64,000 nucleotides of DNA from Schmidtea polychroa. Its lineage: Eukaryota. Position numbers and translations under genes: made by a program. The notes beneath the pieces were generated by a model. That model did no database searches and had not been told where the DNA came from. It saw only the letters and a list, made by a program, of their open reading frames with translations. Location: assembly GCA_044892525.1 (NCBI GenBank), contig CM097885.1:200446001-200510000 (forward strand), in the 5' to 3' direction. Positions 1-53,500 of this stretch are shown piece by piece; position 1 is the first letter of the stretch, and every line of letters begins with the position of its first letter.

Positions 1-594
1 AAAATATTGCAACAAAGTAATAAAATAATACAACATTTTAAACTCTAGATCAATCCATTTTATAGAAAATTAAATTTTATCTATATAATATATGAATAAA
101 TATCCAAGGAAATTACGTTAACGTATAATAAATACAAATTTATCGTAAAAACATGTGTGTATTACACACAAAACAAGATACATAATTTCTAATCAATCCA
201 TTTTATAGAAAATTAAATTTTATCTATATATTATATGAATAAAATCCTAAGAAAATTACGTTAACCGCGCGAAAAATACAAATTTATCATAAAAACATGT
301 GTGTATTACACACAACATACGAGACATAATTTTTAATCAAGCTATTTTATAGAAAATTAAATTTTATCTATATAATATATGAATAAAAATCCAAGAAAAT
401 TACGTTAACCGCGCGAAAAACTACAAATTTATTGTAAAAACATGTGTGCATTACACACAAAGCATCAAACTGAAATTGTAATTGCGCCATGTTGTAGAGA
501 ATTAAATTCTGCCTATACATTGTTACACTTAAATCTCGATCAGACATGTGAAAAGAGACATAAAAGAGAAAAAACAGTAGAGTAGTATGATGTG
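1..594. repeat. Left arm of long perfect inverted repeat (partner 1495-2088); probably continues left of the window
   Basis: Position x pairs with 2089-x. Base 1 aaaatattgcaacaaag is the reverse complement of ctttgttgcaatatttt ending at 2088. ORFs 368..625(-) and 1464..1721(+) translate identically from HHTT onward. No mismatch in the blocks compared by eye. Confidence 0.97.
51..463. repeat. Three ~143-bp tandem repeats inside the inverted-repeat arm (mirrored at ~1626-2038)
   Basis: Units start caatccattttatagaaaatt at 51 and 194, and caagctattttatagaaaatt at 338. Each carries ttacgttaac and tgtgtg(t/c)attacacaca. Confidence 0.9.
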
Positions 595-2088: not shown

Positions 2089-2446
2089 TATTATTTTAGT
2101 TACAATATTCTTTTTAATTTGTTGTCCGTCTTCGAAATAATGTATTGATTTGTCTTAATTACCATTATTATTTTATTACTTTGTTGCAATATTTTTATTA
2201 TTTTAGTTACAATTTGATAAATATTTTACAACTGTTGAAAATTTATCTGAAATATGTTATTACTTTGTTACAATTTTATGAAAACGTTATTACTGTTTTG
2301 CAATTTGATGAAAAAAAAAAAAATGATATTACTTTGTGAGTTCAACACATTATTTTTATTAAATTATTATGAAAATGTTAAATAAGTCAACTTTAGCGTC
2401 AAAATGTGTTTTAAAATTTAAGTTTTAAAATACTGCAATGTAATGC

Positions 2447-2583
2447 ATTTATTTTTCCTACCCCTTCCTTGATTTTGATTGGTCAGAATATATTTATTTT
2501 TCCTACCCCTTCCTTGATTTTGATTGGTCAGAATTTAATCATGTGTAATATATAAGCAGTAACTTTTCAAATGTTTGTCATTT
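2447..2583 (+). promoter_or_regulatory. Putative RNA Pol II promoter of the polymerase gene: two reverse CCAAT boxes in a 43-bp duplication, TATA box, initiator
   Basis: atttatttttcctaccccttccttgattttgattggtcagaat at 2447-2489 and 2492-2534 (ATTGG at 2478, 2523). TATATAAG at 2549. TCATTT (Inr-like, A at 2580) lies 31 nt downstream of the TATA start. Confidence 0.6.
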
Positions 2584-2606
2584 AAACTTTTAATTTAACT
2601 TATATA

Positions 2607-5600
2607 AGTGAATAAATTTTTATTCTCTATCTAATATTAATGATTATTTTTTAGTGAACGGATGCAGTTTATATAAATTTTGTATTGCCGAAAGTCATGA
2701 AGATGTGGAGAACTGTAAATCAGTTACATCATCATATTTCAAGATAAATGACTCTACCTTATCGGGTTACATATGTCCGGAATGTCTCATTATAACACCA
2801 GGTAGGTGGTTAATGTTTGTACGACAACACGGACACCATCTTAGAAGATTCGAAGAAACGAAGAGCAGGATGATCACTAAAAGTAATACTCTTTCTACTA
2901 TTAACAATTATTAATTTTTTATAGTACAATCGAAAATGAATACATCATACGATCCTAAGGAGATTAAAGAATATGTTACAAGTTATGTTATTTAAGTTGT
3001 TTAATATTAATTATAAATATAGTTAGACAAAACTCTGGCACCACAAAACGAAAGTCAATATTTTACGGAAATGGAGACTCTAACATACAATTGTGTCCAC
3101 GTCGGGAGTCTGACTTAAACGGTTCTCGTGTTGAATTGACAAGCGATGTATCTGCAATTAATTCTCCTGACATTGTTGTTCCAGATTGTCTCATCAAAGA
3201 AATAGAAGATCATATTCAACGAATGGGGACAGTAAAAATCCAATTTGGACTTTGTGCAGAGTTTATCAAAGAGGATGGTGAAATTAAAAAATGGTGTTTG
3301 TCGAATAAAGCAATTACAATGTCATCTTCATTTATTAATGATGGAATTGAAAAATTAAAAGAAAAGTTGGAGAAATACACTCAACAAAGTAGTGGGTGGA
3401 GAATTCATAAAATATTAGAAGTTACTATGATTTTAACTAAATTATCAGACATAATACATGTATCTGGTAAGATTATTTACATTATTATATATATAAATCA
3501 AGAGATTACTTAGGTTCAAGTTACATTAAAACGCCAAATTACCTGAAAAACTGCCAGGCTTTAGTTAATGTTCAAAATAATGATCAATTCTGCTTTTTAT
3601 ATAGCATACTGGCCGTATTACATTATGATGACATAAAACATCACAGAGAAAGAGTAATGAAATATAATTTAAGTGGTAATATATATTTATATCATTCTAA
3701 AAATATATATATTTAGAGTTAAAATGGAAATCAGATTGGTTTCCAATGAAGTTGGTTAACATTTGCCAATTTGAGGCAATGAATCCTAATCTAGCGATCA
3801 ATGTTCTCAAATATAATAAAGATCCAATTAAACAAAAAACTAATGATATTTTCAAGAATCCGTTCGTTGACTTGGTATATAGAAGTACTTCGACGGGATG
3901 TCAATTATATCTCTTATTGATTGAAGAAGGTAATATTTCTTTTAATCATTAAAAATATTAACTAAATTTTAGAATTAAATTATCATTTTTTGGCTGTAAC
4001 TAATCTCGATCGACTGCTCAATTACAGAGATAGAGTAGAAGGAGTCAGAATCCAATCACATTGGTGTCATACGTGTCTTCATGGGTTTCAAAAACGTCCT
4101 GCTTTTGAAAGACATATAGGTCTTTGTAGGAAGAATGTGGAGCGGACGACTCTATACTCAATGCCAGAGAATAAATATATCGAATTTAAAGACTGGAGTA
4201 AAACTATAAAACAGCAGTTTGTTGTCTACGCGGACTTTGAATCAATATTACCTCTAGATGACAAGCACTTCCAAAAACATGAGCCGATTGCATCTGAATT
4301 TGTGCTTCTTCATCAAGGTTGTCCGATTCGAAATGAAACATTTGTTGGGAAAAACTGTATCATTCAGTTTATACAAGCATTGGATGATATAGCTACAGAC
4401 ATAGTTTATCCGTGGTATAAAATTAATGGATCGAAGGAAATGATGGAACTCACTTGGGAACAGCAGGAAGAATTCACGACTCAAACTCATTGCTACCTTT
4501 GTAAAAAGATTATCAATATACCTGTTCGAGATCATGATCATTTTACTGGTCAATATCTCGGAGCAGCGTGTCAAGATTGTAATTTGGCTAGAAGAATCAA
4601 TCCGTCTTTACCTGTTGTATTTCATAATCTTCGTGGATATGACATTCATCATATATTAAAATATGCAATTGGAAAATTCCCCGATTGGAATTTAATTGTT
4701 ATTCCTCAATCAACAGAAAAGTTTCTCACACTTACAGCGACATCGAAAGGCAGAAGAATTAGATTCATTGATTCTTTACAATTTTTAAATAGCAGCTTGG
4801 CAAATTTATCAAAAAACTTGCCACGTCTTCCACTTACTTCAAAGATTTTCAATTCGCATTTAATAACTGGTAAAGGCATATTTCCTTATGATATGGCTAC
4901 ATCAATGGATGTTTTACAGTCAATAACAGAATTACCACCGATTTGGGAGGGAGTTAGTCAAGAAGATTATATACATGCAAATCGAATCTGGCGACAATAC
5001 AACTGTGAGACACTGCTAGATTACATGCTAGTATATCTCAAGTTGGATGTTTTTCTGTTGGCCGATGTTTTTGAAGCTTTCAGAGAAAAAACATTTGACG
5101 AAGATGGACTTGAGGCTCTATCGTTTGTTTCCATACCCGGATTAAGTTGGGCATCAGCTATTAAACAGTTACCTGAACCAGTAGAACTTATTCAAGATCC
5201 AGAGCTTTACCGTTTATTTGAAGCTGGTATTCGTGGTGGAATGACATTTATCAACAAACATCATGTTGAAGCTGATGAATCAACACAAATGTCATACCTA
5301 GATGTTAATAATTTATATGGATGGGCGCTGTCGCAAAAACTTCCTGTTGGTGAATTTAGATGGATAAATGATCAGACTGAAATGAATGGTATTGTTGAAA
5401 GATGTGCAAATGGGGATAAGTTTGATGGAGATCTTGGATATGTTCTAGAGGTTGACATCGTCATTCCTGATAGTATACAAGATAAACTAGATGATTTACC
5501 TATAGCTCCTGAGCTTTGTTATCCACCTGGTAGTAAAGTTGAAAAGCTGTTGTTAACTCATGAGCCTAAGAAAAACTATGTAGTTAATGGTAGAGTTTTG

Positions 5601-6578
5601 ACAGAGTGGTTGAGTTACGGCGCAAAAGTCACAAAAGTTAATCGTGCTGTAGAATTCAAGCAAGTGGCTATTTTCAAAGGCTATATTGATTACAATACCA
5701 AAATGAGAGCAGCTAGTACAGATTCGTTTCAGCGAGATTATTATAAGTTAAAGAACAACAGTTTATACGGTAAAACTGTGGAAAACTTGAAGAAACGTAT
5801 AAATTTGAGATTATGCAGCAAAAGCAAAAGATTGATAACTTATTGTAGTAATCCTATGTTTCGTCGTAGCATCAAGATTGCGGATGATCTCATTGCTGTT
5901 ATACTCAATAAGGAAATTGTGTGTTTAGATAGACCAATGTATATTGGACAAACCGTACTTGATTTATCCAAACTTCGCATGTACCAGTTTCAATATAAAG
6001 AACTACAGAGTTATAGAGAAGAATTCAATTGTCAAATTAATATCGTAGCCGGTGACACAGATTCCTTCTTTTTAGAGTGTAAAAATGTAGATTTACGCTT
6101 ACAACTATATCCAAAAATGATTGCCGATGGGCTCCTAGATACTTCAAATTATCCAGTGACTGATCCATTGTTCTCAGATAAAATTTGTTCGGTAATCGGG
6201 AAATTCAAGGATGAGAATAAAGGAAATCAATATAAAGAATGGGTGTTTCTTCGACCCAAGTGCTACTCACTCCAAGGCGATAAAAACACTCTAAAAGCCA
6301 AAGGAATAAGACTTACAAACTCTAATCTTACACATGAAGCCTATAAAAAAGTGTATACTGATGGTGGAACAGTGAGCATCCCACAAAAAAGAATAGGAAG
6401 TGTCAATCATCAGTTGTATACTTTCATGACAGAAAAACGAGCTCTCCAATGTTTGGACGATAAAAGGTATTGGTACAATTGTAATGAAAGTTATGCCTAC
6501 GGTCACTATAAGATTCGCCAAATGCATATTGCAACTGCTATGTCTAGAAATGAATGCAAATCGAAACAAGCACTTTAA
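2607..6578 (+). CDS. polB: Spliced protein-primed family B DNA polymerase of Polinton/Maverick/adintovirus type; join(2607,2655..2882,2925..2981,3023..3466,3514..3675,3717..3929,3973..6578) = 3711 nt, 1236 aa
   Basis: Motifs: ExoI VYADFES, endonuclease-VII-like CYLC..RDHDH..GAACQDCN, ExoII FHNLRGYD, ExoIII YLKLD, PolA DVNNLY, PolB KLKNNSLYGK, PolC GDTDS, KCYS, KAKG. Splicing restores Polinton-type N-terminal motifs SGW..GSSYIKTP..VNVQNNDQFCFLYSIL..FPMKL..INV..LLLI..NYHF..NLDRLL. The first, single-base coding exon is the least certain part. Confidence 0.9.
2608..2654 (+). other. pPolB intron 1 (47 nt, phase 1, splits putative start codon A|TG)
   Basis: A|GTGAAT...TTTTTTAG|TG AAC GGA. An in-frame TAA at 2583 upstream means the spliced ATG would be the start codon. 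Confidence 0.55.
2883..2924 (+). other. pPolB intron 2 (42 nt, phase 1)
   Basis: A|GTAATA...TTTATAG|TA. Removes the in-frame TAA at 2912; reads MITKIQSKM. Confidence 0.75.
2982..3022 (+). other. pPolB intron 3 (41 nt, phase 1)
   Basis: A|GTTATG...AAATATAG|TT. Joins into the frame of ORF 3091..3513 with no stop (EYVTIRQNSG). Confidence 0.72.
3467..3513 (+). other. pPolB intron 4 (47 nt, phase 1)
   Basis: G|GTAAGA...ACTTAG|GT. Recreates the conserved GSSYI motif. Confidence 0.92.
3676..3716 (+). other. pPolB intron 5 (41 nt, phase 1)
   Basis: G|GTAATA...ATTTAG|AG. Gives KYNLSELKWKSDWFPMKL, in frame with ORF 3746. Confidence 0.9.
3930..3972 (+). other. pPolB intron 6 (43 nt, phase 1)
   Basis: G|GTAATA...ACTAAATTTTAG|AA. 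Gives LLLIEEELNYHFLAVTNLDRLL, in frame with ORF 3990. Confidence 0.92.
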
Positions 6579-6597
6579 CAATTAAATTTATGTGAAT

Positions 6598-6603
6598 AAT
6601 AAA
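6598..6603 (+). terminator. Putative polyadenylation signal of the pPolB gene
   Basis: AATAAA 20 nt after the TAA stop, followed by GT-rich sequence. AT-rich context lowers specificity. Confidence 0.4.
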
Positions 6604-7022
6604 ATATATATTGTGAATTGTTTGACTTAGTTAATTAAAATGTGTTTTATCATTTAATTATTCATTTGTCCAATTAATTTAGATAATTAGTTTCAAGTAA
6701 GAAATATTATTTTTGTGTTTATTTTATTTATTTATTTATTTTTTCCGAAATATTAATATCCAGTTTATCTAAAATTAACTCAGCGTTTTATTTTATAATA
6801 AATTAAATAATTTCTAATTAAAATTTATTCAAATTGAATAATTACTAATTAAAATTTTATTCAAATTGAAATATTATCGTTATAATTTACCTCTTGTTAG
6901 AATATAATGTAAATGTAAAATTAAAAAAAAAAAAAAAAATAAAAAAAAAAATAAAAAAAAAAAAATAATAATAAATAAAATAATAAAATAATAAAATAAT
7001 ACTAAAATAAAAGCATAATAAA

Positions 7023-7162: not shown

Positions 7163-8462
7163 TGTTAATTAAAAAAAAAAATGATTCGATTGACCTATAT
7201 TTGATCTGGACATTGGGATGACCTTGAAAGTGTCCTGGAGTCCTTACTATTCACTACTATCGAGACAATTAGCTTGGTCAAAGAAAATCAATTATTAACA
7301 GTTTCTAATAGTTCGAATAATGATAGTCAATTTTAATTGTGATCGAGATCGTTTGCTTTTGTATTTTTAAACATATTTTGAAAAAACGTATAAAAGTATG
7401 ACGAATAATAATATTTATAGAAAGTAATTTTTATTTATTTCATTTATAATGTATTTGCGATTCTTAATTCGTTTTTATATAATTTTGAATACGATTAATA
7501 TAATAATTAAATGTCGATGTCTGAAACTACAGCTAGTTTAATTAAACTATTCGCCATAAACGTAAGGGATTTTCTCTTTTTCCCGGAATTCCCACCAGGA
7601 AAGTCCATTCAAATAATCAGTATGATGCTTTTTAATCATTTACATGTTGACTTCTTATTTTACAGATGTCAAAATGACTTAATTTGCTTTCTGGCGATCA
7701 ATGAAGGAAGAGATCAATTTTTTATAAATAAGTTTGCTTTTTTACACCGATGCTTCCAGAATCACCTTTCGTTTCAAATTTAATTTACTTAAAATTTTAA
7801 TTTATTTAGTTTAAAACTTATTTTAGTGCTTGTAGATTATTATGCTTAACACGTTAGTTGCCATGAAACATGTATATCGTGTCTCAGATTTGCGTAGTTT
7901 GAGCCACAAGACACTTGTGCCGTGTTTCTTTTACTCCATTATATTTAGCCGTGTGGACCACCACACATGTAATAATAATAATACAAGTAATATTAGCCAG
8001 ATCAACCGACTTGGCCCAGGAGGACAATTTTTTCTAAACATTGTAGCAGCTAACGTGTTAAATATCCTCACAGCACCGAAGTACCGATATGCGTTGTTAC
8101 AATGTTGCATCTTTGAATAAATATTTTGCAATAATAAACTTTAATTGGATATTTTGTATATTTGGTGATTGTTAAAAATAAAATAATAACAAAAAACATT
8201 CTTTAAATTAATACATATGTAAATTTCAATAATAGAAAATCCCCAAAAGTAAAATATACTTTTTATAATAAAGAATGAAAAGAAAAAGAATGAAAAGAAA
8301 AGTTAATATAATTTTGTCTCGTCTCAAACAAAAACAGTTTTATTTAAAAACTAGCAAAAATAATTTTTATTTAAATTAAAATTTAAAAATTCAAAAATAA
8401 AAACATTTGTAAATTTTATGTTTTAAATTAAAAAAAATATTTTTTGTATTCAAATGTATGAC

Positions 8463-10465: not shown

Positions 10466-10508
10466 GTAAAGCTTAGTTAAATGATTACTTTTGAAATATT
10501 GAAATCAG
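10466..10508 (+). other. Host intron, 43 nt, phase 1
   Basis: G|GTAAAG...AATCAG|TA. Joins the SEA exon in frame to the 8184-aa ORF and removes the TAG at 10474. Confidence 0.75.
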
Positions 10509-36590: not shown

Positions 36591-37229
36591 CTATATAGTT
36601 TAAGTCTATATAATAAATTATTACTATAGAGAATTTAAAAATTTAGAAATCATTAAAAAAAATAAGGTTGAAAATCATGGAAAATGAAAGAAAATTATGA
36701 ATTTAAGAAGATTGGTATGTAAAATATTTTTTTATTTATTAAATAAAGGTTTTATTAATCATTATTATTGTTTCTTACTTTTATTGTACCACGTACAATC
36801 ACCCCCAGCTGTCCCGACAGTTTTTAGAGTTGACTCTGCTGGGTACTACAGATTATTTCTCCCCAACAATCACACAAAAAATATATACTCAACATACATA
36901 TATATATATAAACTTTGTCTACATCTACTTAACATAATAAATTGATGTCAGTGGCAAAGAAACACAACAATTATTTTTCAATCACTACACCTTTTAGAAT
37001 ACTTATTATAGAAGTATAAAGGATAGTGACACTTTTGGCCGAATACAGTAAGCCATATCCTTCAAATAAACTCATTTTGTTATACAAGAAAAAATAAATG
37101 ACGTCAAAGAAAATGAAAACAATGCAAATATAAACTACATCTTCAACCCTGAAGAAACACACACAATAAACTCCATAATAAAAACTAAAAGCAAACATAT
37201 ACAACTTTTTCACGGACGAAAACGGTACA

Positions 37230-38720
37230 CCTCAAATATGGCTAGAATCTGCCAAATTAACATTAGGTTTATCGGCCATTAAATCATCAAAAACATTATA
37301 CTCACATATAATAGCCGCACTACCCAGCAACATTTTGAATGAAATAGCAGTCAACGAGAACCCTTTCGAACTGCTATACAGAATCTTACTAAACAGAAAC
37401 AAGGTGAATAGAATATTAATACTTGAATCCTGCTTAAAAGACATACAACTAGAAAACGACAAACCTAGCGAAATTTTAAGAAACCTGGAAAAAAACTGGA
37501 ATATCTACACCCGATAATAAAAAGCTTGGGGTCCAATGAATTCGAAAAATACCTATTTATGAGGCCAATGCCAGCCGTAATTAGGTGCATTCTTGTTGCA
37601 AACAACTGAACAGACCTGGAAACGATAACCGACATAGGTGGCAATATAAATGATGAAATATACCTAACAATCTGTAAGACGTATAGAAAACAAAACCAGT
37701 GGGAAATCAAACGAGAAAGTATTCAAGATCAAGAAAACCATAACAACGAAACCAACAAATTGCCGAACTTCTTTATAATAAAAGAAGTAATAACAAAAAA
37801 CAAGAACCTTCGGAATGGTCTACAAGAATCACAAGCGAGAGAAGCAAGGAAAAACCAATACAACCAAAACTAACAAAACATATCCATTGAACAAAAAAAT
37901 ATTTCAACAACCGTGTCAACAAAACAAACAATTCAGAGAATAATTACAAACTGAACTGAAACTGGTGCTACTACCACAACAAATTCGGATACTAGGCTTT
38001 CAAATGCAACGCACTTTGCTCCTTCCACAACAAAAACTCGGAAAACAATTAAAGTTGTCAATAACATCACCAACATTCGGCGACTGCAAAACATTTAAGT
38101 TGCAAAGCAAAATACAAACTTCATTAACATAATACACAACCCAAACTATTTCAGCAAGATCGACTTACTAAAAGCATATCACCAAATTCCAGTGCGCGAT
38201 GAAAACATTAAAAAGACCACAATAATAACACCAATCGGTCTATATGAATACAACATAATGCCTTTCGTTTTAAGAAACTCACTCGCGACGTTTCAGAGGT
38301 TCACTGATCAAATACTGGAAAATCAGAGAAATACAGTAGCGTATTTAGACGATATTTTAATCGCATCAACAAACAAAACAGAATACCTACACGACATCAA
38401 CGAAGTCCTAAAAACCCTCAACAATCACAACCTTATAATCAATATTAAAAAGTGCGGATTCATGAAACACGAAATGAAATTCGTCGGACTTATTCTTAAC
38501 GAAAATGGAACAAACCGTTAGAAGACAAAATAAAAGTAATCAAAGAATTCCCACTTCCAAAAACAACAAGAGAATTGAGACGTTTTCTTGGAATGATCAA
38601 TTTTTACCACAAACACATCCCTAAATGCAGTGAAATTCTCACACCACTAAACGAACTAAACAAAACCAAAAGGAACATTAAAATAAGCTGAAATGAAGAC
38701 CTTAAAAGTATTTTCAAAAA
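37230..38720 (+). mobile_element. Degenerate Ty3/Gypsy retrotransposon fragment (gag-like remnant plus reverse transcriptase)
   Basis: YFSKIDLLKAYHQIP, TPIGLYEY..MPF.LRNS.ATFQR, AYLDDILI, KKC.F and ELRRFLGMINFY, with internal stops (TAG 38519, TGA 38689). Confidence 0.85.
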
Positions 38721-39137
38721 GACAAAAACAAAAAATAAAACAAAACAAACCCAACGCAAGTAACAGCAACATTCTTAGTGTAAATTTGGATTAATTGTTT
38801 AACTCCGGTTTTAAAGATGGAAGTTGTCTTATTAATGTAGATTGTTGTTGATTTTATTGTTATTGTCATTTTTATTATTATTGTGAAAGAATAAAAAATC
38901 TTTTAGTTTAATTCTCTATAGTAAATTATTACTATAGAGAATTTAAAAATATAGAAATCAATAAAAAAATTTTTATTTGACCATTATTCTAATTAATTTG
39001 ACTAGTAGTCAATTAGGTATTGTTTTAAAAATAATTATTTTACTATTTAAAACGTTAACATTTTTAAATTTTAACAATTTTTAAATAACAATTTTAAATT
39101 AAAAAAAAATTTAAAAACTAAATAAAAAATAATAACC

Positions 39138-40980
39138 ATGGCTTCTCAAATCCCATTTTACGAATCTTCAGAATCAGAAGATGATTTCGAAAATGAAATA
39201 TATAAAGATAAGGAAAGTATTAACAGAGGAATGAAAAAAAGATAGCGTAATTGGAAGTTTGAAATGACATACAGATAAAGATAAAGCGATCGATTTTATT
39301 AAATCCGAAAATACTTGGAGTTATCATTATGCAAATAGAACTGCTGATTCTAAAAAAGTTTGTTATAGGTGTAACAAAGCAAAATTAAGAGGAAAACAAT
39401 GTTCAGCTGCCATTTTACTTCAGATACACCTTAACAATGAGTACGTTGATATATATCGAACTGGAGCAGATCACATGCACGACAATCTATTAGATAATAA
39501 TAGATTAACTGAAGAGATGAAAGAAGAAATTATGACGCTTTACGATTTAAAACTAAAACCAAAAGCAATATTGCAAAAACTTAGAGAAAAAGACTTACAT
39601 CCAAAAAACAAATCACAAGTATTCAGCTATTTGAAAAAATTAAATAAATTGAAGTATGGATCAACAAAAATCAGTCTTGGAGAACTTGAACAGTGGTGTA
39701 TCGATCATAGTAATATACCCGAAGACGAAAATGAAAGTTTTGTTGCTGCATTTAGCATTCGATATGGCAATGAAGAAAACGAACAAGAAATGGAAACTGA
39801 AGATGAAGAGGAAGAGGATGAATACAACTTTAGAGTTCTAATTTCTACGAAGACTTATGAAATTAGCAAACAAAACTAAAAAAATTCACGCTGATGCTAC
39901 ATATAGGTTAAATTGTGAAGGCATGCCAGCTTTAATAATTGGTACAACCGATATGGACCGCCATTTTCACACCTTCGGTATCTCCGTGTGCTCTAGTGAA
40001 AAAACAAAAAATTTCATTTTTATATTTGAGTCAATTGTTAATTCGTTAAAAAATTTCGGTGAGAACATTCATTTGGGTACTTTGATTTCAGACGCTTCAA
40101 ATTCAATCCGAAATGCTTTCAAAAAGGTTTTTGGCGAAGATTCAAACTTAATTATGTGTTGGGCTTATATGCGTCGTAATGTAGTCAAACATTTGCATTT
40201 AGTTGAACAAGAATTCAGAGAGGATATATTAAATGATATTGATACTTTTCAGATGGCTTTAAATAAGATTATTTTTGAAAAAGCAAAGCAATTATTTATT
40301 AAAAAATGGCTTCAAAAGAAACAAAATCATTTTATCGACTACATGAAGGTAATGTGGTTAACAACTCATCAGAATTGGTATGAAGGAGCACTCAGCAATA
40401 CTCCATCAACCAACAATGCACTAGAATCATATAATTAGTTATTAAAAAAGAGGATACTCTCAGAGAAAAATTTCCATTATCGCGTTATTTTAAACTTTGT
40501 CACGATTCTGTTAAAAAATGGTCAAATCTTTATGAATACAATGACAAAGTATTCGTCGAATCTCCAACGATTTATCTAAAAAAATAGTCAGATGGTTACC
40601 ATTGGGCCAAAAGTAGTAAAATAATAACATCCAAAACTCCATCCAATTGTGTAGAGTACTACTGTCCAGCAGGAAACGAATCAAAAGTATCAGAGGATCA
40701 AATACAAAATGTGAAAAGCATGCGTTGGAATACATTCGATCAATTTATAAAAAGATCTTCGGTTGTGTGGATCGTAAATATTTCGTGAGATGATGCCAAA
40801 TGGAAGTAAGGTACATGCACTTGTCCATCTTTTTTAAAAAAATACATGTGCAAGCATGTAATTGGTGTATTCGTCTAAAATATGTCAAGCCACAACCTGC
40901 TGCCAAACAAATACCAATTGGAGAGAAACGTCAGCGAGGAAGACTAAAGAAAACAACAAAAGCATTACGAGTAGATTAAA
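39138..40980 (+). mobile_element. Degenerate Mutator-like (MULE) transposase
   Basis: N-terminal WSYHY..CYRC..C zinc-binding segment; MULE core ADATYRLN..LISDAS.SIRNAF..CWAY..STNNALES; C-terminal SWIM CTCPSFLKKYMCKH at ~40813. Several stops and frameshifts. Tandem tactgatca subterminal motifs at ~41030-41270. Confidence 0.85.
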
Positions 40981-41527
40981 TTAAAATTAAATTTTTTTAA
41001 AAGAAAATTAATTTTAAATTTAAATAAAATAATACTGATTAATTTTCTTTACTGATCACCTTTTACCAATCATTTTTTGAATAAATACTGATCGTTTGTT
41101 AATTTTTGTTTGATCAAATTCCATTTTAATACTAATCATTTATTTTTTTTTACTGATTAAAAGACATTAAATACTGATCATTTAATTAAAATATTGATCA
41201 TTTTCATAAAATACTGATGGAAAAAACATTTTTTTGCTGATCAATTTTTACTTAAAATACTGATCAAAAACATAAAAAATAATGATTATTTTTACTAAAA
41301 TATTAATTATTTTATTTGTTACCTTATTCTTTATTGTACCACATACAATCACCCCAGCTGTCCCGACACAATTTTTAGAAGTAACTCTGCTCGGCACTAC
41401 AGATTATTTCTTTTGGATTATTTCTCCGATTTCTGGAATTAATAGTGATTCTCAAAATTCTCATTTTCCTGCAATGCTAGGCCAAAAATTTCACCCACCA
41501 AAAGCTACTTTAGGATGTAGTGCTACG

Positions 41528-41907
41528 CAGTGCTCGAAGTGGAACAAAATATGTGCCGGGATAGGCATGCTGTGGCACCCGGGATTCCAGGCTTTTATGC
41601 AGAAATTTTCAGTTGGGGGTGTTGCAAAACTTTGGGGGGTGTCCAACAAATACCTACCTATCCATTACTGCTGCTTGGGAAATTCTTAATTGAATAGAGA
41701 ATAGAGAATAAAGAATATATATATATATACATAAATATATGGATGTACTATGTGTGACCTTAATTGCAGTATTTGTGTGCCTATAAAATGAAATAAGTAC
41801 CGGGATAAACCTATAGATTATATGAAATGAAGTGCCGGGATGCAATTCCGCCTACATAATCAATGCCGGGATAATATCCCGGCTATCCCGTCTCACTTCG
41901 AGCACTG
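41528..41907. mobile_element. Non-autonomous hAT element (MITE), 380 bp
   Basis: Perfect 14-bp TIR CAGTGCTCGAAGTG / CACTTCGAGCACTG. 8-bp TSD GTGCTACG at 41520-41527 and 41908-41915. Repeated gccgggata subterminal motif. Confidence 0.95.
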
Positions 41908-42576
41908 GTGCTACGTCAAATAGCCGTGGGACTCATTGTTAACACTGCTTACCTACCCATTCTGTAGCACATATCCTGATATACGGGAATTATATATTCA
42001 TCATTATCACTGAAATTTTTACATATTTCAATTGATGTTTATTTTCTGATCTCTATTTTGAGTTATTGAAATTTATATCAAATGCTTTAATTATTTAATG
42101 GGAATTAAAATATATAAAAAGGGAGTGGGAACTTACAAATAATAATAAATTTATTTAATTGATATTCTTTTAAATCTCTTTAATAAGCTGGATGAATTTC
42201 CTTGAAATGATTTTCTATTTTATTTGTTAATTTCAACAATAAAATTTATTAATGTGTAATTTATTTTGCAAATTAAATATAATATACACTGAAATAACTT
42301 TTGTTTAAACTTACTGGTAAAAATAAACAAATTGCATCATCAAAATATGAATTCAATTATAAATAATTTTATCAAAAATCTATTCAAGGTGACTCCATTC
42401 TATCAGGTAGATATACATGCGATTTCTAGCTAGTATTCAACTGCATTTATATATTCAACATTTGTTGACATTTCAATAAATCTAATTTTACTAAATAAGA
42501 AAATGTTTTTATTATATAATTCTTAAATAAATTTTATTAAATTACTTAAATTATTTTTAAATTGTCTATTTATCTT

Positions 42577-45500
42577 AGGTAAATCCAACTCGGTTTTAAA
42601 ATTCTGCAAATTCGCCATAAAAATATCCAATTTTTCAAAAAAACGTGTCAACTTACTTATTTAAACAAATTAATTCAGATTTCCAACTCTCCTCTTCTTA
42701 AGAATGTTTCCACTTCTTTCTTTCGTCCCTTCTTGTGAATGTAGTTTGACTCGACGAAGTAATAGAAATCTGACGACTTTAGATGGGTCATCGTATTGCA
42801 TACCATCATTGTGACTTTTTTGTGGTTCTTTGCTTACGAGTGCCTTCTCCCTCGCCTCGAAAACACGAGAACCCCTCTTTGTCTTATTCATAGCTCTTAC
42901 AGTGTCTGCGGCTTTACTTCAGTCAAATCGCGCGTCTTGATATCTCGGCTTGTTTCATGTTGAAATGTGGGTTAAGACTTCGTCCATAAATTATCTATAA
43001 TGATTATAAACGTGCAGCACTCTTTCGACTGCTATTTATAGTGAACTCTATTCTAGGTAGAAGTTCATGCCAGTTTCTCTTTAGACATCTACCTGCCAAT
43101 GTAACTGTAATAAGATCTCTTATTGTTCGTATGGTTCGTTCGTCTAAACCATTTGATTGGCGCTGGTAAGGTGAGCTGAATTCCTGTTTAATTCCAAGTT
43201 TTGGTAGCTTCTGCCTTAGAAAATTCCCTTCGAAATTGCGGTCTCTACCATCACTACCATATAATTTTATGGCGTTTTTTTCCATTTAGGCCATATCTAT
43301 AAAATTCTGTTGTTGTAATTCAGATCTATATCGAGGAATAAATATTTTCTTGGTTCTTTTCTGATCGATCTTTCTCTCAGAGCAGATCTCGCAATATTGT
43401 AGACAGAGTTGGATTGTTTCTTGCATTTTCGGCCAGTAAAATACTTTTCCCATACAATGAAATGATTTCTTAACTCCAATGTGACATAGTTCTTCATGAA
43501 GGGTTGTTGTTAACAGGCCTACAAAAGTTTCTGGGAGTATCATTAAGATATTTTTGTTCTTTTCTATTGTTATTAATCCTCCATTAATTCGTATATTCTT
43601 TACGTTAAATGGAATAACAATTCTTTTTGTCCTGTGTACATCTATTTTCAAATATTTCTCGCAGCTCTCGTAACCGAATGTCATTTCGCTGTTTTTCATA
43701 TACTTTTCCCATAGCTTTTTTTCTTTGGATAGTACATATAAATATATATATATATATCTTTGATTTTCCTTCCTTAGATTCTTCATGTCTTGTTTGACAC
43801 TGGGTGTAAATCATACTTTTTAATCTTGATAGTCCATCTGCATTCGAGTGTTCTTCGCCTTTCCGATATTTTAGTTCAAAATCATATTCTGACAGGTTAG
43901 CTAACCATGTTTGGAACTGCGGACTGATTGGTGGTTTTGCAGTATTCATGAAAACCAATGGTTTGTGGTCGTTGCGAATTATGAATTTCTTCACGTACAG
44001 ATATTCTCTAAAATGCATTACGTATTCATGTACGGCGAGCCTTTCTTTCCTGGTTACACAGTAACCCTTTTCATGCTATAACATATGTCTCGAGTCATAA
44101 GCTATGACAGATTCTTTTCCTTCTTTAATCTGACTCAAAACTGCACCAATAGGTCCGAAACTAGCATCTGTGTCTAGGATAAAAGTCCTATATTCTGTTC
44201 GAAAATCAAAAATAGGTACCTCGCACAACCGTCTCTTCAAAGTTTGGAAGCGATCATTGCATTCTTTAACCCAAGTTATATCTTTATCGCATCCAGATTT
44301 TGCAGCGTATAATGGTTCGGCGATTTTGGCATAGCCTTTGATGAATCTTCTATCGTAGTCCGTTAATCCGAGAAACGATCTCAATTGATTTGAACATTTT
44401 CCTACTTCTGCTTTCGCGATCTCTTCAATTTTCTTTCTGATTGTCTGTATATCATATGTCCAAGGAAACGTTATTCTGTTTAATTGAATTCGCATTTTTC
44501 TGTATTTATCTTCAGTCCTGCCATTTGAATTCTTCTGAATATTTCCCTTTATTGCTCATTGTGGTCTTTTTGACTTTACATATACATCAGGATATCATCT
44601 AGATAAACTATCACCACCTTGATTACTCTGAAATGTAGCAAGAGCTGTTGCTAAGCCAAATGATAGTCTATAGAAGCAAAATTGTCCTTCTCTTGTACCG
44701 AATGCAGTCATTTTTTGAGTTTCTGGAGCCAACTCTATTTGATAATATCCTTTTGCCAAAATCAATTGACGAAAATATTTTTGCATTTGCAAGGCAGTCT
44801 AGTAAGAATTTGGTATTAGGTATCGGAAATGACTTCTTTTCTGTTATGGCATTCAATCCACCATTATCTACATACATACTGATAGATCCATCTTTCTTCC
44901 CTACTATCACTAACAGGGCATTCCAAGGACTCTTGCAACACCGAATAATATTTCTTTTCATTAACTCTATTACCAGCTCTTCAATCCTTTTCTACATGTA
45001 CATTGGTTGATGTCGAGGATGTTGCATTATTTGGACTCCTGTTATCCAAATCTCGTGTCGAACTAAGTTTGTAAATCTCAGATCAAATTTCGATGCCATA
45101 AAAATTCTGTCGTATTCCCTGAGCATTCCTTCAATATCTTTACTATTCTCACCTGCCATCGCCACTAGTGCTTTATTTATTCTTTCTTCATCAGTTTGGA
45201 TTTTGTTTATCAATGAAGTTTCTATATTATTGATGTTCACTAACTTTACTCTAAACTCTTTCATTGTATCAATGCCCCCTATGAATTCGAGCTTGATCTC
45301 TTTTACCACTACTACTGTGATTATTTTGGTTTCCTGATTCTACGTGGCCAGTATAGTCATGTATCCCATTGCTTCTTCACCTCCAGTTGAAAAAACTCCG
45401 CATAATTAATATAGGACTATCAGTCTGCCTTGCAAATTTTCTCCAACACATTCTTGCTCATGACTGTTAATGATGCTCCAGAGTCTCATAAAATATCTAA

Positions 45501-47352: not shown

Positions 47353-47587
47353 TTTCATTAGTTTTTAGAATTAATAAATAGTGACCACTGAAATAATTTA
47401 TCACTCCCATAATAGATCAAGTATGTCAATATCCGAATCAAAACATAAAGTAACATTATAACAAAAAAGTTCCTTGAGACTATTAAGAGGATTTAAATTC
47501 AAGTGAATATATTAATTTAATTAAAAGGGGGAAATAAAAAAATAAATAATTATTTTTTCCATAATTTTATTATTTATTAACATTAAG

Positions 47588-50500
47588 GCAAGGATCATTG
47601 ATAGCTGAAACAAATATCACCGTTTCTTCAAGAAACTACACTCTCATTCAACAGGATACAATTGGGGAAATATTAAAAAAAAATAATACGAATATTGACG
47701 TTATTCTAGCGACAGTACCGTATCCAACAGACCCAATAACTGTAGAAATAAAGATAACAACAACTAAAAATGAAAACACCGAAATATCAAGAGCAACAGA
47801 AATCAGTAGAACAGCTAGTAAAGGACAATCATCAGAAATTATATCGACCACAGCTCCCCCATCAGGTACATCAATTTCACAAACTTCTCTGACAATTGAT
47901 ATAGAGACCAAGACATCTACTGGTTCACTTACAACATCAAGTACTTCGGGAACGATTGAATATAAAACAAGTGAAAGTTCAACAACGAAATCTAGTGAAA
48001 GCACCACAGGCATTTCATCTACTGACAAAACAAGTGCGACCACAACTTCAGAATCACCAACAACGTCAAGCAGCCAAACAACAAGCTCGATCGAAAGCAC
48101 TAGTTCCACAAGTCGAACTTCATCAGCACCGGTTACAGACACATCAATCAAGTCAACTAGCCTACCAGAAACGTCTTCAATGTCAACAGGAAAAACGAGT
48201 GAAAAATCAACTAGTTTGAGTAGCATTGACACTTCATCAGTATCGTCGTCCACATCTTCAGTAACTCCAACGACTGGAACAAAAACGGGTGAAAGTTCAA
48301 CAACGAAATCTACTGAAAGCACCACAGGCATTTCATCTACTAAAAAAACAAGTGCGACCACAACTTCAGAATCACCAACAACGTCAAGCAGCCAAACATC
48401 AAGCTCGATCGAAAGCACAAGTTCCACAAGTCGAACTTCATCAGCACCTGTTACAGACACATCAATCAAGTCAACTAGCCTACCAGAAACGTCTTCAATG
48501 TCAACAGGAAAAACGAGTGAAAAATCAACTAGTTTGAGTAGCATTGACACTTCATCAGTATCGTCGTCCACATCTTCAGTAACTCCAACGACTGGAACAA
48601 AAACGAGTGAAAGTTCAACAACGAAATCTACTGAAAGCACCACAGGCATTTCATCTACTGACAAAACAAGTGCGACCACAACTTCAGAATCACCAACAAC
48701 ATCAAGCAGCCAAACAACAAGCTCATTCGAAAGCACTAGTTCCACAAGTCGAACTTCATCAGCACCTGTAACAGACACATCAATCAAGTCAACTAGCCTA
48801 CCAGAAACGTCTTCAATGTCAACAGGAAAAACGAGTGAAAAATCAACTAGTTTGAGTAGCATTGACACTTCATCAGTATCGTCTTCCACATCTTCAGTAA
48901 CTCCAACGACTGGAACAAAAACGAGTGAAAGTTCAACAACGAAATCTACTGAAAGCACCACAGGCATTTCATCTACTGAAAAAACAAGTGCGACCACAAC
49001 TTCAGAATCACCAACAACGTCAAGCAGCCAAACAACAAGCTCATTCGAAAGCACTAGTTCCACAAGTCGAACTTCATCAGCACCTGTTACAGACACATCA
49101 ATCAAGTCAACTAGCCTACCAGAAACGTCTTCAATGTCAACAGGAAAAACGAGTGAAAAATCAACTAGTTTGAGTAGCATTGACACTTCATCAGTATCGT
49201 CGTCCACATCTTCAGTAACTCCAACGACTGGAACCAAAACGAGTGAAAGTTCAACAACGAAATATACTGAAAGCACCACAGGCATTTCATCTACTGACAA
49301 AACAAGTGCGACCACAACTTCAGAATCACCAACAACGTCAAGCAGCCAAACAACAAGCTCATTCGAAAGCACTAGTTCCACAAGTCGAACTTCATCAGCA
49401 CCTGTAACAGACACATCAATCAAGTCAACTAGCCTACCAGAAACGTCTTCAATGTCAACAGGAAAAACGAGTGAAAAATCAACTAGTTTGAGTAGCATTG
49501 ACACTTCATCAGTATCGTCTTCCACATCTTCAGTAACTCCAACGACTGGAACAAACACGAGTGAAAGTTCAACAACGAAATCTACTGAAAGCACCACAGG
49601 CATTTCATCTACTGAAAAAACAAGTGCGACCACAACTTCAGAATCACCAACAACGTCAAGCAGCCAAACATCAAGCTCGATCGAAAGCACTAGTTCCACA
49701 AGTCGAACTTCATCAGCACCTGTTACAGACACATCAATCAAGTCAACTAGCCTACCAGAAACGTCTTCAATGTCAACAGGAAAAACGAGTGAAAAATCAA
49801 CTAGTTTGAGTAGCATTGACACTTCATCAGTATCGTCGTCCACATCTTCAGTAACTCCAACGACTGGAACAAAAACGAGTGAAAATTCAACAACGAAATC
49901 TACTGAAAGCACCACAGGCATTTCATCTACTGACAAAACAAGTGCTACCACAACTTCAGAATCACCAACAACGTCAAGCAGCCAAACAACAAGCTCGATC
50001 GAAAGCACTAGTTCCACAAGTCGAACTTCATCAGCACCTGTTACAGACACATCAATCAAGTCCACTAGCCTACCAGAAACGTCTTCAATGTCAACAGGAA
50101 AAACGAGTGAAAAATCAACTAGTTTGAGTAGCATTGACACTTCATCAGTATCGTCGTCCACATCTTCAGTAACTCCAACGACTGGAACAAAAACGAGTGA
50201 AAAATCAACAACGAAATCTACTGAAAGCACCACAGGCATTTCATCTACTGACAAAACAAGTGCGACCACAACTTCAGAATCACCAACAACGTCAAGCAGC
50301 CAAACATCAAGCTCGATCGAAAGCACTAGTTCCACAAGTCGAACTTCATCAGCACCTGTTACAGACACATCAATCAAGTCAACTAGCCTACCAGAAACGT
50401 CTTCAATGTCAACAGGAAAAACGAGTGAAAAATCAACTAGTTTGAGTAGCATTGACACTTCATCAGTATCGTCGTCCACATCTTCAGTAACTCCAACGAC

Positions 50501-53500
50501 TGGAACAAAAACGAGTGAAAATCCAACAACGAAATCTACTGAAAGCACCACAGGCATTTCATCTACTGACAAAACAAGTGCGACCACAACTTCAGAATCA
50601 CCAACAACGTCAAGCAGCCAAACAACAAGCTCATTCGAAAGCACTAGTTCCACAAGTCGAACTTCATCAGCACCTGTTACAGACACATCAATCAAGTCAA
50701 CTAGCCTACCAGAAACGTCTTCAATGTCAACAGGAAAAACGAGTGAAAAATCAACTAGTTTGAGTAGCATTGACACTTCATCAGTATCGTCGTCCACATC
50801 TTCAGTAACTCCAACGACTGGAACAAAAACGAGTGAAAGTTCAACAACGAAATCTACTGAAAGCACCACAGGCATTTCATCTACTGACAAAACAAGTGCG
50901 ACCACAACTTCAGAATCACCAACAACTTCAAGCAGCCAAACAACAAGCTCGATAGAAAGCACTAGTCCCACAAGTCGAACTTCATCAGCACCTGTAACAG
51001 ACACATCAATCAAGTCAACTAGCCTACCAGAAACGTCTTCAATGTCAACAGGAAAAACGAGTGAAAAATCAACTAGTTTGAGTAGCATTGACACTTCATC
51101 AGTATCGTCGTCCACATCTTCAGTAACTCCAACGACTGGAACAAAAACGAGTGAAAGTTCAACAACGAAATCTACTGAAAGCCCCACAGGCATTTCATCT
51201 ACTGACAAAACAAGTGCGACCACAACTTCAGAATCACCAACAACGTCAAGCAGCCAAACAACAAGCTCATTCGAAAGCACTAGTTCCACAAGTCGAACTT
51301 CATCAGCACCTGTAACAGACACATCAATCAAGTCAACAAGCCTACCAGAAACGTCATCAATGTCAACAGGAAAAACGAGTGAAAAATCAACTAGTTTGAG
51401 TAGCATTGACACTTCATCAGTATCGTCGTCCACATCTTCAGTAACTCCAACGACTGGAACAAAAACGAGTGAAAGTTCAACAACGAAATCTACTGAAAGC
51501 ACTACAGGCATTTCATCTACTGACAAAACAAGTGCGACCACAACTTCAGAATCTCCAACAACGTCAAGCAGCCAAACAACAAGCTCAATAGAAAGCACTA
51601 GTTCCACAAGTCGAACTTCATCAGCACCTGTAACAGACACATCAATCAAGTCAACTAGCCTACCAGAAACGTCTTCAATGCCAACAGGAAAAACAAGTGA
51701 AAAATCAACTAGTTTGAGTAGCATTGACACTTCATCAGTATCGTCGTCCACATCTTCAGTAACTCCAACGACTGAAACAAAAACGAGTGAAAGTTCAACA
51801 ACGAAATCTACTGAAAGCACCACAGGCATTTCATCTACTGACAAAACAAGTGCGACCACAACTTCAGAATCACCAACAACGTCAAGCAGCCAAACAACAA
51901 GCTCGATAGAAAGCACTAGTTCCACAAGTCGAACTTCATCAGCACCTGTTACAGACACATCAATCAAGTCAACTAGCCTACCAGAAACGTCTTCAATGTC
52001 AACAGGAAAAACGAGTGAAAAATCAACTAGTTTGAGTAGCATTGACACTTCATCAGTATCGTCGTCCACATCTTCAGTAACTCCAACGACCGGAACAAGA
52101 ACGAGTGAAAGTTCAGCAACGAAATCTACTGAAAGCACCACAGGCATTTCATCTACTGAAAAAACAAGTGCGACCACAACTTCAGAATCACCAACAACGT
52201 CAAGCAGCCAAACAACAAGCTCGATCGAAAGCACTAGTTCCACAAGTCGAACTTCATCAGCACCTGTTACAGACACATCAATCAAGTCAACTAGCCTACC
52301 AGAAACGTCTTCAATGTCAACAGGAAAAACGAGTGAAAAATCAACTAGTTTGAAAAGCATTGACACTTCATCAGTATCGTCGTCCACATCTTCAGTAACT
52401 CCAACGACTGGAACAAAAACGAGTGAAAGTTCAACAACGAAATCTACTGAAAGAACCACAGGCATTTCATCTACTGAAAAAACAAGTGCGACCACAACTT
52501 CAGAATCACCAACAACGTCAAGCAGCCAAAAAATAAGCTCGATCGAAAGCACTAGTTCCACAAGTCGAACTTCATCAGCACCTGTTACAGACACATCAAT
52601 CAAGTCAACTAGCCTACCAGAAACGTCTTCAATGTCAACAGAAAAAACGAGTGAAAAATCAACTAGTTTGAGTAGCATTGACACTTCATCAGTATCGTCG
52701 TCCACATCTTCAGTAACTCCAACGACTGGAACAAAAACGAGTGAAAGTTCAACAACGAAATCTACTGAAAGCACCACAGGCATTTCATCTACTGACAAAA
52801 CAAGTGCGACCACAACTTCAGAATCACCAACAACGTCAAGCAGCCAAACAACAAGCTCATTCGAAAGCACTAGTTCCACAAGTCGAACTTCATCAGCACC
52901 TGTTACAGACACATCAATCAAGTCAACTAGCCTACCAGAAACGTCTTCAATGTCAACAGAAAAAACGAGTGAAAAATCAACTAGTTTGAGTAGCATTGAC
53001 ACTTCATCAGTATCGTCGTCCACATCTTCAGTAACTCCAACGACTGGAACCAAAACTAGTGAAAGTTCAACAACGAAATCTACTGAAAGCACCACAGGCA
53101 TTTCATCTACTGACAAAACAAGTGCGACCACAACTTCAGAATCACCAACAACGTCAAGCAGCCAAACAACAAGCTCATTCGAAAGCACTAGTTCCACAAG
53201 TCGAACTTCATCAGCACCTGTTACAGACACATCAATCAAGTCAACTAGCCTACCAGAAACGTCTTCAATGTCAACAGAAAAAACGAGTGAAAAATCAACT
53301 AGTTTGAGTAGCATTGACACTTCATCAGTATCGTCGTCCACATCTTCAGTAACTCCAACGACTGGAACAAAAACGAGTGAAAGTTCAACAACGAAATCTA
53401 CTGAAAGCACCACAGGCATTTCATCTACTGACAAAACAAGTGCGACCACAACTTCAGAATCACTAACAACGTCAAGCAGCCAAACAACAAGCTCGATCGA

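Follow-up and report, generated by a model that had tools for sequence, protein, structure and literature searches.

Polintons (Mavericks) are defined as elements with terminal repeats of 100–1500 bp, AG...CT ends and a target-site duplication of 5–8 bp, usually 6 bp (10.1101/2023.08.22.554363). Intact vertebrate Maverick genes are reported as intronless (PMC8097293), and nematode Mavericks are described with intron-bearing cargo and intronless core genes (10.1101/2022.07.12.499685); both accounts bear out the expectation, stated in an earlier reading of this DNA made from the letters alone (the sequence-only reading), that genes for the protein-primed DNA polymerase (pPolB) are normally uninterrupted. 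C. elegans holds remnants made up of pPolB and a terminal inverted repeat without integrase, described as partial copies (10.1101/2024.01.15.575659), and adintoviruses are presented as combining a hexon and an rve integrase with PolB (10.1101/2024.03.25.586562). Spliceosomal introns in endogenous DNA viruses are already in print: dinoflagellate Polinton-like proviruses carry introners (10.1101/2025.03.18.643946) and punuivirus genes contain spliceosomal introns (10.64898/2026.10.09.758095). As described, both systems are protist or algal, and the introners are mostly young and post-integration. For virophages and PLVs, 52-nt terminal palindromes have been proposed to prime replication, mostly in elements that lack a pPolB (10.64898/2026.07.28.741278). 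A literature search outside Repbase and most subscription journals returned neither an intron-rich animal pPolB nor a pPolB-only palindromic Polinton.

The locus described here lies in a window of 64,000 nucleotides (the whole stretch analysed) of Schmidtea polychroa contig CM097885.1. It shares with published Polintons a pPolB, AG...CT ends, a 6-bp target duplication, a size of 12–14 kb and a high copy number. It differs from the published descriptions in lacking integrase, ATPase, protease and capsid genes, and in having terminal inverted repeats of ∼ 5.7 kb that hold the polymerase gene, so that the gene is present twice. In contrast to the vertebrate Mavericks (PMC8097293), its polymerase has six putatively spliced introns; as a further difference from the published TP-vOTU-EXO-PALM pPolB (10.1101/2024.03.18.585575), these lie only in the N-terminal, terminal-protein (TP) and vOTU parts, one of them at the TP border. 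The element resembles the introner proviruses and punuiviruses as an endogenous DNA virus with spliceosomal introns, but unlike introners its introns are old, their position being common to distant relatives and every copy examined having them. Introns inside a Maverick are also found in nematodes and an integrase-less pPolB beside a terminal repeat in the C. elegans remnants, whereas here we find a palindromic family. Hairpin priming would be shared with virophages and PLVs, yet here the whole element is a palindrome and pPolB is its sole gene, and, unlike an adintovirus, it has no integrase or capsid match. We propose that it is probably a non-autonomous derivative of Polintons/Mavericks, young and high in copy number: a palindrome of ∼ 13 kb in which each arm carries one spliced protein-primed polymerase gene and no other gene is present.

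The polymerase gene belongs to one arm of a palindrome that measures 12,428 bp, has Polinton ends and is flanked by a 6-bp target duplication. Only the inner end of the left arm (1–580, reverse strand) falls within the window; the arm extends to G000:C1:200440831 and bears a second pPolB gene. Its terminus is at L013:4831, and L013 5067–10000 is identical to window 2089–7022 (100.000% over 4934 nt); nearer the centre the inverted repeat (1–642/1447–2088) is 98% identical. The non-palindromic centre, or loop (581–1508, no strand assigned), consists of tandem repeats and what is left of the two ends of another Polinton-ended element, with a 5-nt AGTAG unit just outside it on each side (576–580 and 1509–1513). 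The terminus and repeats of the centre also begin gene-less palindromes of 13.5–14.7 kb, which have a target duplication in 4/4 cases. On the forward strand, the right arm starts with a non-coding inner part (1514–2441; ∼ 144-bp tandem repeats, longest ATG ORF 59 aa) that is common to a second polymerase family, family B, at ∼ 98% (family B match 1500–2277). The arm ends in a terminus of the 5'-AGTAGT type (7241–7258, reverse strand), which has 144 + 141 exact matches in G000 against 0 for the control, followed by the 6-bp target-site duplication (7259–7264, forward strand), identical at the left end.

Queries for integrase, ATPase, two putative capsid proteins and TBP gave no true match in any of the three elements tested. 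The longest ATG ORF outside pPolB is 59 aa, and ORF inspection left no ORF space for a protease. One integrase match, in E083, was rejected as it came from terminal-repeat sequence within the query. Insertion of the centre by integrase was also rejected because its flanks are inverted rather than direct repeats. A multipartite virus, with palindromic segments carrying capsid or integrase, is unsupported: pPolB or a piece of it lay on the arm at all 14 centres sampled from ∼ 450. The palindrome arm, the second, 100% identical gene copy outside the window, the absence of any other Polinton gene and the uniform intron phase and split start codon (see below) all go beyond what the sequence-only reading had noticed.

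Terminus matches indicate about 140 elements in the genome, with two polymerase genes each, and the gene itself has at least 131 matches, spread over all four large contigs and 98–100% identical. In a sample of the ends (the first 100 of the 285 listed), 47 pairs are spaced < 50 kb, and in 39 of these pairs the distance is 11.5–14.2 kb. The target duplication was present in all six elements for which both ends were found (7 fetched) and in 19/20 of a second set. Family B, a second polymerase lineage, has the same build (full palindrome with target duplication in 5/6). The asymmetric copy L128+L063 (7.6 kb, short left arm) also has a target duplication; a full palindrome is therefore not needed for insertion. 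Within 21 elements, the two arms differ by a median of 1 substitution in ∼ 4,070 nt, versus medians of 43–114 to other elements. Comparing arm pairs at 131 shared polymorphic sites gives 2707 agreements and 3 differences in 2710 comparisons, from which we conclude that both arms are probably recopied from one template. In only 12/21 elements is each arm closest to its own partner among all arms, since many elements are members of very young subfamilies. Element-private variants occur in both arms (57) or in one arm only (32); the latter fit mutation after insertion, and slow gene conversion or assembly smoothing would also be compatible.

Long inverted repeats are known to undergo conversion, and the time of homogenisation is not readable from arm identity alone. 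Together with the three discordant sites, this leaves some room for a conventional deletion derivative whose terminal repeats are very long: replication would run straight through the palindrome, and the arms would be equalised later by gene conversion, by mismatch repair (of a hairpin or in the chromosome) or partly by the assembler. We consider this unlikely, though it deserves some weight. The 32 one-arm variants persist, so neither chromosome nor assembler wipes every difference. Moreover, the centres are ends of other Polinton-type elements and their type is independent of arm subfamily, which requires repeated rebuilding of the palindrome. The flanks of the palindromes are unique and carry target duplications, so the palindromes are not fold-back artefacts of the reads.

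The six GT-AG introns of 47, 42, 41, 47, 41 and 43 nt and the stop-free 1236-aa frame put forward in the sequence-only reading were reproduced on recomputation from the DNA, from which splicing is deduced. Their removal from the forward strand, on which all of the following features lie, leaves a coding length of 3711 nt (1236 codons and a stop, no internal stops). All six introns are in phase 1, every exon is phase 1-1 symmetric, and GC is 0.10–0.17 in introns versus 0.28–0.37 in exons. The 43-nt host mucin intron invoked for comparison is likewise as stated (10466–10508, GT-AG). Intron 1 (2608–2654; 47 nt, GT-AG in 20/20 copies, length 47–51) divides the start codon 1+2, the coding part of exon 1 being its first base (2607), and the start of exon 2 aligns with residue 2 of P0010 and P0015. 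Exon 2 (2655–2882) encodes a Cys/His-rich N-terminus that is zinc-finger-like by eye; it has no Pfam match and matches homologue N-termini (E 1e-10 to P0002). Intron 2 (2883–2924; 42 nt, in-frame stop inside; GT-AG in 20/20 copies, 42 or 45 nt) and intron 3 (2982–3022; 41 nt in 20/20 copies) enclose the weakest exon, exon 3 (2925–2981; 57 nt). Exon 4 (3023–3466) corresponds to the predicted TP domain and is followed by intron 4 (3467–3513; 47 nt, 47–52 nt among copies) at the TP/vOTU border. Exon 5 (3514–3675) holds the first part, with the conserved Cys, of a putative vOTU protease domain, assigned by homology and labelled after 10.1101/2024.03.18.585575. Intron 5 (3676–3716; 41 nt) keeps GT-AG at lengths of 41–108 nt across 20 copies, exon 6 (3717–3929) carries the middle of the putative vOTU domain (E 7e-25 to P0010), and intron 6 (3930–3972; 43 nt) precedes the intron-free exon 7 (3973–6578) with the conserved His, exonuclease, endonuclease VII-like insert and polymerase. 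Upstream, 2442–2583 is a likely RNA polymerase II promoter by its motifs: two 45-nt repeats, each with GATTGG (2477, 2522), and what we take to be a TATA-like box (2549) and an initiator-like site (2576). The relative L116 is preceded by an equal promoter-like layout.

Comparison of copies and homologues argues strongly that the introns are removed by splicing. As a chance control, AT-rich GT..AG candidates number 18 in 2600–3975 versus 0 in the 2.6-kb last exon. GT-AG is retained at every intron in all 20 other copies (120/120), and frame-breaking indels common to several copies are confined to introns; the exon frameshifts (n = 5) are all singletons. Among homologues, all 28 join exactly at intron 4, with one codon at the junction. 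At intron 6 the join is exact in 20/30 and off by one in 8; at intron 5 it is exact in only 3/30, with two more residues there in 26/30; for intron 1, 11 homologues match exon 2, whose start corresponds to residue 2 or 3 in 4 of them. The metagenomic relatives L115 and L116 (∼ 55% identical) share the codon positions of introns 4 and 6, where they have introns of 43 nt and 44–45 nt, respectively, with different sequences. Both lack intron 5, and L116 has a 44-nt phase-1 intron at about the position of intron 3. Since introns 4 and 6 are common to relatives from other organisms, and complete Polintons in this genome also have polymerases with spliced leader exons, the introns are old and not peculiar to this locus. 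Introns 2 and 3 are the least supported of the six, because exon 3 has no homologue match and can be skipped in frame. Among contigs from four sequencing runs (three guessed to be RNA, one unclassified), none of the 15 joints listed, of 71, falls at any of the six introns. In X1, X2 and X4, contigs pass unspliced across intron 2 or 3 (e.g. X4 2647–3347, X2 2670–2930); as their RNA origin is not on record and the DNA is very high-copy, we draw no inference from them.

In adenoviruses, pTP and polymerase are separate. By analogy, regulated isoforms, e.g. retention of intron 4, might release a free terminal protein, or the gene might be spliced with only five introns, exon 3 being skipped. Such a reading fits the symmetric phase of all exons, the position of intron 4 at the TP border, conserved among relatives, and the unmatched exon 3. 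We find it improbable nonetheless: at least nine residues are present at the place of exon 3 in 10 of 11 homologues, and the splice sites of introns 2 and 3 are both kept in 20/20 copies. Intron 4 is in frame without a stop in 12/21 arms, so its removal is not required there, and retention as a general route to free terminal protein is weakened.

The spliced product matches PF03175 (E 4e-31) and has the catalytic exonuclease and polymerase motifs. Its endonuclease VII/HNH-like insert matches PF02945 below the cut-off (E 2.5e-4, 21.3 bits versus 23.6), with Cys and His residues invariant in alignment A1, and may correspond to that of the HNH-bearing pPolB2 described in 10.1101/2023.08.22.554363. 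Our tree was a quick version that left out L115 and L116 and included no reference pPolB2. The model of exon 4 (pLDDT 89) has as its best structural match a Y-family little-finger domain (Z 8.3, rmsd 2.4 over 92 residues), followed by seven further Y-family polymerases (Z 6.4–7.7). Exon 4 also matches adintovirus and MELD PolB (adintovirus PolB-type matches, E 1e-5 and 8e-4). The model thus points to a TP domain with a little-finger/PAD-like fold, the fold given for the polinton TP in 10.1101/2024.03.18.585575, and, with a conserved Cys and His in the next domain, the protein resembles the TP-vOTU-EXO-PALM pPolB of that account. The two putative vOTU residues are nearly invariant at the expected places in alignment A2; the domain has no Pfam match. 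Viral contigs yielded no relatives with the single protein as query and three loci with the alignment (best 29% identity). A sequence search of solved structures gave only phi29 polymerase (E 0.069) and one unrelated chain.

The polymerase is under purifying selection. The dN/dS check suggested by the sequence-only reading gave pN/pS 0.29 (75 synonymous variants on 746 sites, 87 non-synonymous variants on 2944). Of these, 62 synonymous and 47 non-synonymous variants are shared, and exons 4–6 (22 of each) are still under selection. Singletons (13 and 40) are near neutral, as expected under selection during transposition followed by decay after insertion. These data support an intact, selected pPolB with host-size introns in an endogenous Polinton-type lineage. 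The proposal of an endogenous lineage that gained host-type introns thus stands as to the lineage; the introns may have been gained there or lost elsewhere. Its alternative, a domesticated viral replicase serving as a host gene, would suit the host-size introns, the polymerase II-like promoter and the pN/pS value, but is hardly credible given the 131 or more near-identical matches, found on each of the four large contigs and within a mobile element, intact ends with target duplications, and near-neutral singletons. A decayed pseudogene with merely intron-like AT-rich insertions is equally implausible: the AT-rich genome supplies 18 GT..AG candidates in the 5' region, but the last exon has none, GT-AG is kept in 120/120 cases though intron length varies up to 41–108 nt, the same-codon introns of relatives differ in sequence, and selection persists on exons 4–6.

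The genome also contains complete Polintons. One of 13,274 bp has an rve integrase and an A32 ATPase above cut-off; its capsid labels have no Pfam support. Integrase matches number 124. Complete Polintons of this kind (13.3 kb) are likely helpers, and the size match, together with the absence of integrase, ATPase and capsid genes from the palindrome, would be consistent with satellite status. Element and helper outer ends are alike over only about 5 nt, so this Polinton ranks as a candidate helper.

We envisage the following cycle for the palindromic derivative. Host RNA polymerase II would very probably transcribe the polymerase gene, and the spliceosome would remove five or six introns to yield a TP-vOTU-exonuclease-polymerase polyprotein. 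On balance we favour replication outside the chromosome by the element's own terminal protein and polymerase, in which the displaced strand would fold into a full-length hairpin and one arm would template both through fold-back priming at the end that the centre has captured from a Polinton. Insertion would quite likely be carried out by a retroviral-type integrase supplied in trans by complete Polintons. We speculate, tentatively, that the common size of 13–14 kb reflects packaging in helper capsids, element size being matched to the helper genome. These elements could perhaps constitute a hairpin satellite class of Polintons, autonomous in replication and helper-dependent for integration and probably packaging. 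Their arms would be rebuilt each cycle from one template by fold-back priming at a captured Polinton end, much as retrotransposon LTRs are rebuilt; they would be padded to helper size and comprise at least two polymerase lineages, and old, all-phase-1 introns would be the rule in the clade.

The absence of introns from core genes enters into the description of Mavericks and into the decision to call them intact (PMC8097293), so a survey based on ORFs would count the entire clade as decayed; the TP and protease domains would be missed because they lie in the interrupted part of the gene. Polinton transposition has been characterised mostly in silico (10.1101/2023.08.22.554363), and the fold-back model predicts intermediates that are difficult to capture; hairpin DNA with terminal protein at one end should occur in the host. 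Some 140 young palindromes with clonal arms would offer a built-in record, in which arm identity is reset at each jump and arm divergence dates insertions. That an element with only a polymerase gene leaves target duplications of the integrase type implies that Polintons are mobilised in trans by other Polintons and, possibly, that satellite packaging occurs in an animal.

Read exon by exon, the pPolB gene contains six introns (2608-2654, 2883-2924, 2982-3022, 3467-3513, 3676-3716 and 3930-3972, + strand), whose removal leaves 3711 nt of coding sequence, i.e. 1236 codons and a stop, with no internal stop when each exon is read separately. This bears out the six GT-AG introns and the stop-free 1236-aa frame of the sequence-only reading; the 43-nt host mucin intron that it reported is likewise present (10466-10508). 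The pPolB introns are all GT-AG, have a GC content of 0.10-0.17 (versus 0.28-0.37 in exons) and lie in phase 1, the first splitting the start codon. As a chance control, AT-rich GT..AG candidates were counted: 18 in the 5' region and none in the last exon. The polymerase part of the gene is free of introns; the last exon matches the Pfam profile PF03175 (E 4e-31), with an endonuclease VII match below the cut-off.

Three independent lines of evidence (homologues, copies and relatives) identify the interruptions as introns, which are presumably spliced. We found 788 homologous proteins, the top one ∼ 60% identical, and used the 30 best of at least 1140 aa for the junctions. Homologues do not align continuously through intron 4, which all 28 informative ones join with exactly one codon. 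Intron 6 is joined exactly in 20 of the 30, and intron 5 in only 3, two extra residues being present in 26. In 4 of 11 homologues the match to exon 2 starts from residue 2 or 3; exon 3 has no match among the homologues. The contigs of two close homologues (P0001, P0002) barely exceed the ORF, and these may be genes lacking introns or transcripts already spliced.

In 20 other elements (one arm from each), GT and AG are retained in 120 of 120 cases, while intron length ranges over 47-52 nt (intron 4) and 41-108 nt (intron 5). Within the gene, frame-breaking indels common to several of these copies are confined to introns; the exon frameshifts (five) and stops (two) are all singletons. Selection, which the sequence-only reading had left to be checked, is evident from an overall pN/pS of 0.29 among the copies (746 synonymous and 2944 non-synonymous sites), shared variants numbering 62 synonymous and 47 non-synonymous, singletons 13 and 40, respectively. 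Intron positions are also shared with relatives: introns 4 and 6 each have a counterpart of 43-45 nt, GT-AG and phase 1, at the same codon in two metagenomic loci, L115 and L116, whose exon 7 is 55-56% identical. A third intron of L116 sits near intron 3, and intron 5 is absent from both; a further relative, L120, stops short of the intron sites.

The fold of exon 4 is predicted confidently, with matches to the Y-family little-finger domain (Z 8.3) and to adintovirus PolB-type proteins. The accessible text of one study assigns the polinton terminal protein a little-finger-type fold (10.1101/2024.03.18.585575), the same as predicted here. Exons 5, 6 and the beginning of 7 are a candidate vOTU domain, with conserved Cys and His at the expected places.

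The gene lies in a 12,428-bp palindrome, of which the window contains the right arm and the centre. Its arms are 100.000% identical over 4934 nt; the same AGTAGT-type terminus closes both arms and a 6-bp duplication stands on each flank. A 300-aa pPolB piece has at least 131 matches in the host genome at 98-100% identity (131 of 12,192 candidates scored), mostly in head-to-head pairs with ∼ 9 kb between copies. The terminus gave 144 + 141 matches (control, 0), and the first 100 listed form 47 pairs < 50 kb apart, 39 of them at 11.5-14.2 kb. Where both ends were found, the target duplication is perfect (6 of 6 elements); a further set gave 19 of 20. Integrase, ATPase, putative capsid and TBP were not found in three elements tested, nor is there an ATG ORF > 59 aa in the window arm outside the pPolB gene. 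The element probably behaves as a Polinton replicon, yet is not an autonomous Polinton.

A mucin gene and pieces of Gypsy and MULE elements downstream are unrelated to the element. Two huge Thr/Ser-rich tandem-repeat open frames (10481-35035, + strand, 8184 aa; 47565-64000, > 5400 aa) were noted, the first preceded by a 43-nt intron; the opposite strand, too, is mostly open. Gypsy-type fragments (RT, RNase H, integrase) and pieces of a MULE transposase lie at 37182-44555. Sequence nearly identical to 2450-6800 occurs under other organism codes in the runs X4 (2647-3347, 3 differences) and X10 (share 0.73), which may reflect labelling, transfer or a sister species.

The centre border gave 451 + 457 matches in the genome, and 14 of 14 further centres picked have all or part of pPolB on an arm (8 family B, 4 window-like, 1 third type, 1 chimera). 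Family B is ∼ 63% identical to the window family in nucleotide sequence; of six elements, five are complete palindromes (13.3-14.4 kb) that have ends of their own and are flanked by target duplications. Among six other loci tested, one holds an asymmetric 7.6-kb element, again with a duplication, and the remaining five lack clean ends. The complete Polinton family (13,274 bp, terminal repeats ∼ 1.15 kb) encodes, according to Pfam, an rve integrase, an A32 ATPase and a TBP-like protein; an ORF that looks adenain-like by eye and two putative capsid ORFs that no Pfam profile supports are also present, and there are 124 integrase matches. The TBP-like gene (L048:4418-4906; PF00352, 55.5 bits) is short and lies head to head with that of the ATPase.

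In three complete copies and one family-B copy, pPolB starts with a leader of three mini-exons; its three introns, all GT-AG and phase 1, lie at positions unlike those of family A. Every pPolB intron seen is in phase 1 (six in the window, three in each leader of L073, L071, L069 and L059, and 3 in L116 and 2 in L115), so every exon could be skipped in frame.

Some further loci were noted. L068:1709-5009 is a chimera of family-A 5' exons and a polymerase part from another lineage, and L047-L048 is a rearranged, complete Polinton in which an inverted duplication covers integrase and ATPase and a terminal-repeat piece is fused into one integrase. By eye, L044:1254 to L046:7643 (∼ 30 kb) holds two Polintons of distant type (pPolB ∼ 27% identical) with a common terminal module bounded AGTAG...CTACT and one 6-bp target duplication around both. 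At L037:2142-3536 an integrase ORF of another Polinton type is fused behind a region that by eye resembles what we take to be a parvovirus-type phospholipase motif.

Between the two arms of an element the median distance is 1 substitution over ∼ 4,070 nt (range 0-6, n = 21), versus medians of 43-114 from arms of other elements; in isolated elements, twin and nearest other arm stand at 1 versus 43, 0 versus 47 and 6 versus 30. Only 12 of 21 elements are strictly nearer to their own twin than to any other arm, because many fall in very young subfamilies. Comparison of arm pairs at 131 shared polymorphic sites gave 2707 agreements and 3 differences, thus left and right arms are not separate lineages of descent; private variants occupy both arms in 57 cases and a single arm in 32.

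The centres (237-1554 bp) are of two main types. One is the first ∼ 250 bp of the complete family's terminal repeat; the window's type corresponds to the ends of palindromes that lack genes and span 13.5-14.7 kb (target duplication in 4 of 4), and a fifth locus (6.2 kb) has no duplication. Three of the four gene-less palindromes (L134-L141), which have Polinton ends, include a ∼ 130-bp stretch resembling the window pPolB promoter region. For both types the join is precise, the foreign terminus adjoining the same arm end and 5-nt unit. Centre type does not track arm subfamily: the window has a type-1 centre, yet only 14-18 substitutions separate its arm from type-2 elements, against ∼ 112 for most type-1 elements.

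We consider the following mechanism most likely. The message would be spliced by the host, and synthesis primed by terminal protein at the element's own ends; the displaced strand would fold into a hairpin of ∼ 6 kb. One arm would then serve as template for both, with fold-back at the central, short inverted Polinton end, and the duplex would be inserted by a helper's integrase. The analysis establishes the palindrome, its ends, the selection on the gene and the clonality of the arms; the steps of replication, the helper and packaging we infer. The rival account is that the palindrome is copied straight, with conversion later.

Maverick core genes are described as intronless in the portions available of two sources (PMC8097293; 10.1101/2022.07.12.499685), whereas the window pPolB has six introns that are probably spliced. 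Endogenous DNA viruses of protists and algae with introns are in print, as far as the accessible text goes (10.1101/2025.03.18.643946; 10.64898/2026.10.09.758095); group I introns are in print as well. In the literature searched, as far as its accessible text extends and with Repbase outside its scope, we found no description of a palindromic polymerase-only architecture with an intron-rich pPolB. In a quick tree, family A groups with metagenomic proteins, away from family B and the complete family, which suggests that two separate polymerase lineages adopted the palindromic form. We conclude that the element is palindromic and polymerase-only, a putative satellite with an old polymerase whose message is presumably spliced; its mobility probably depends on a helper.
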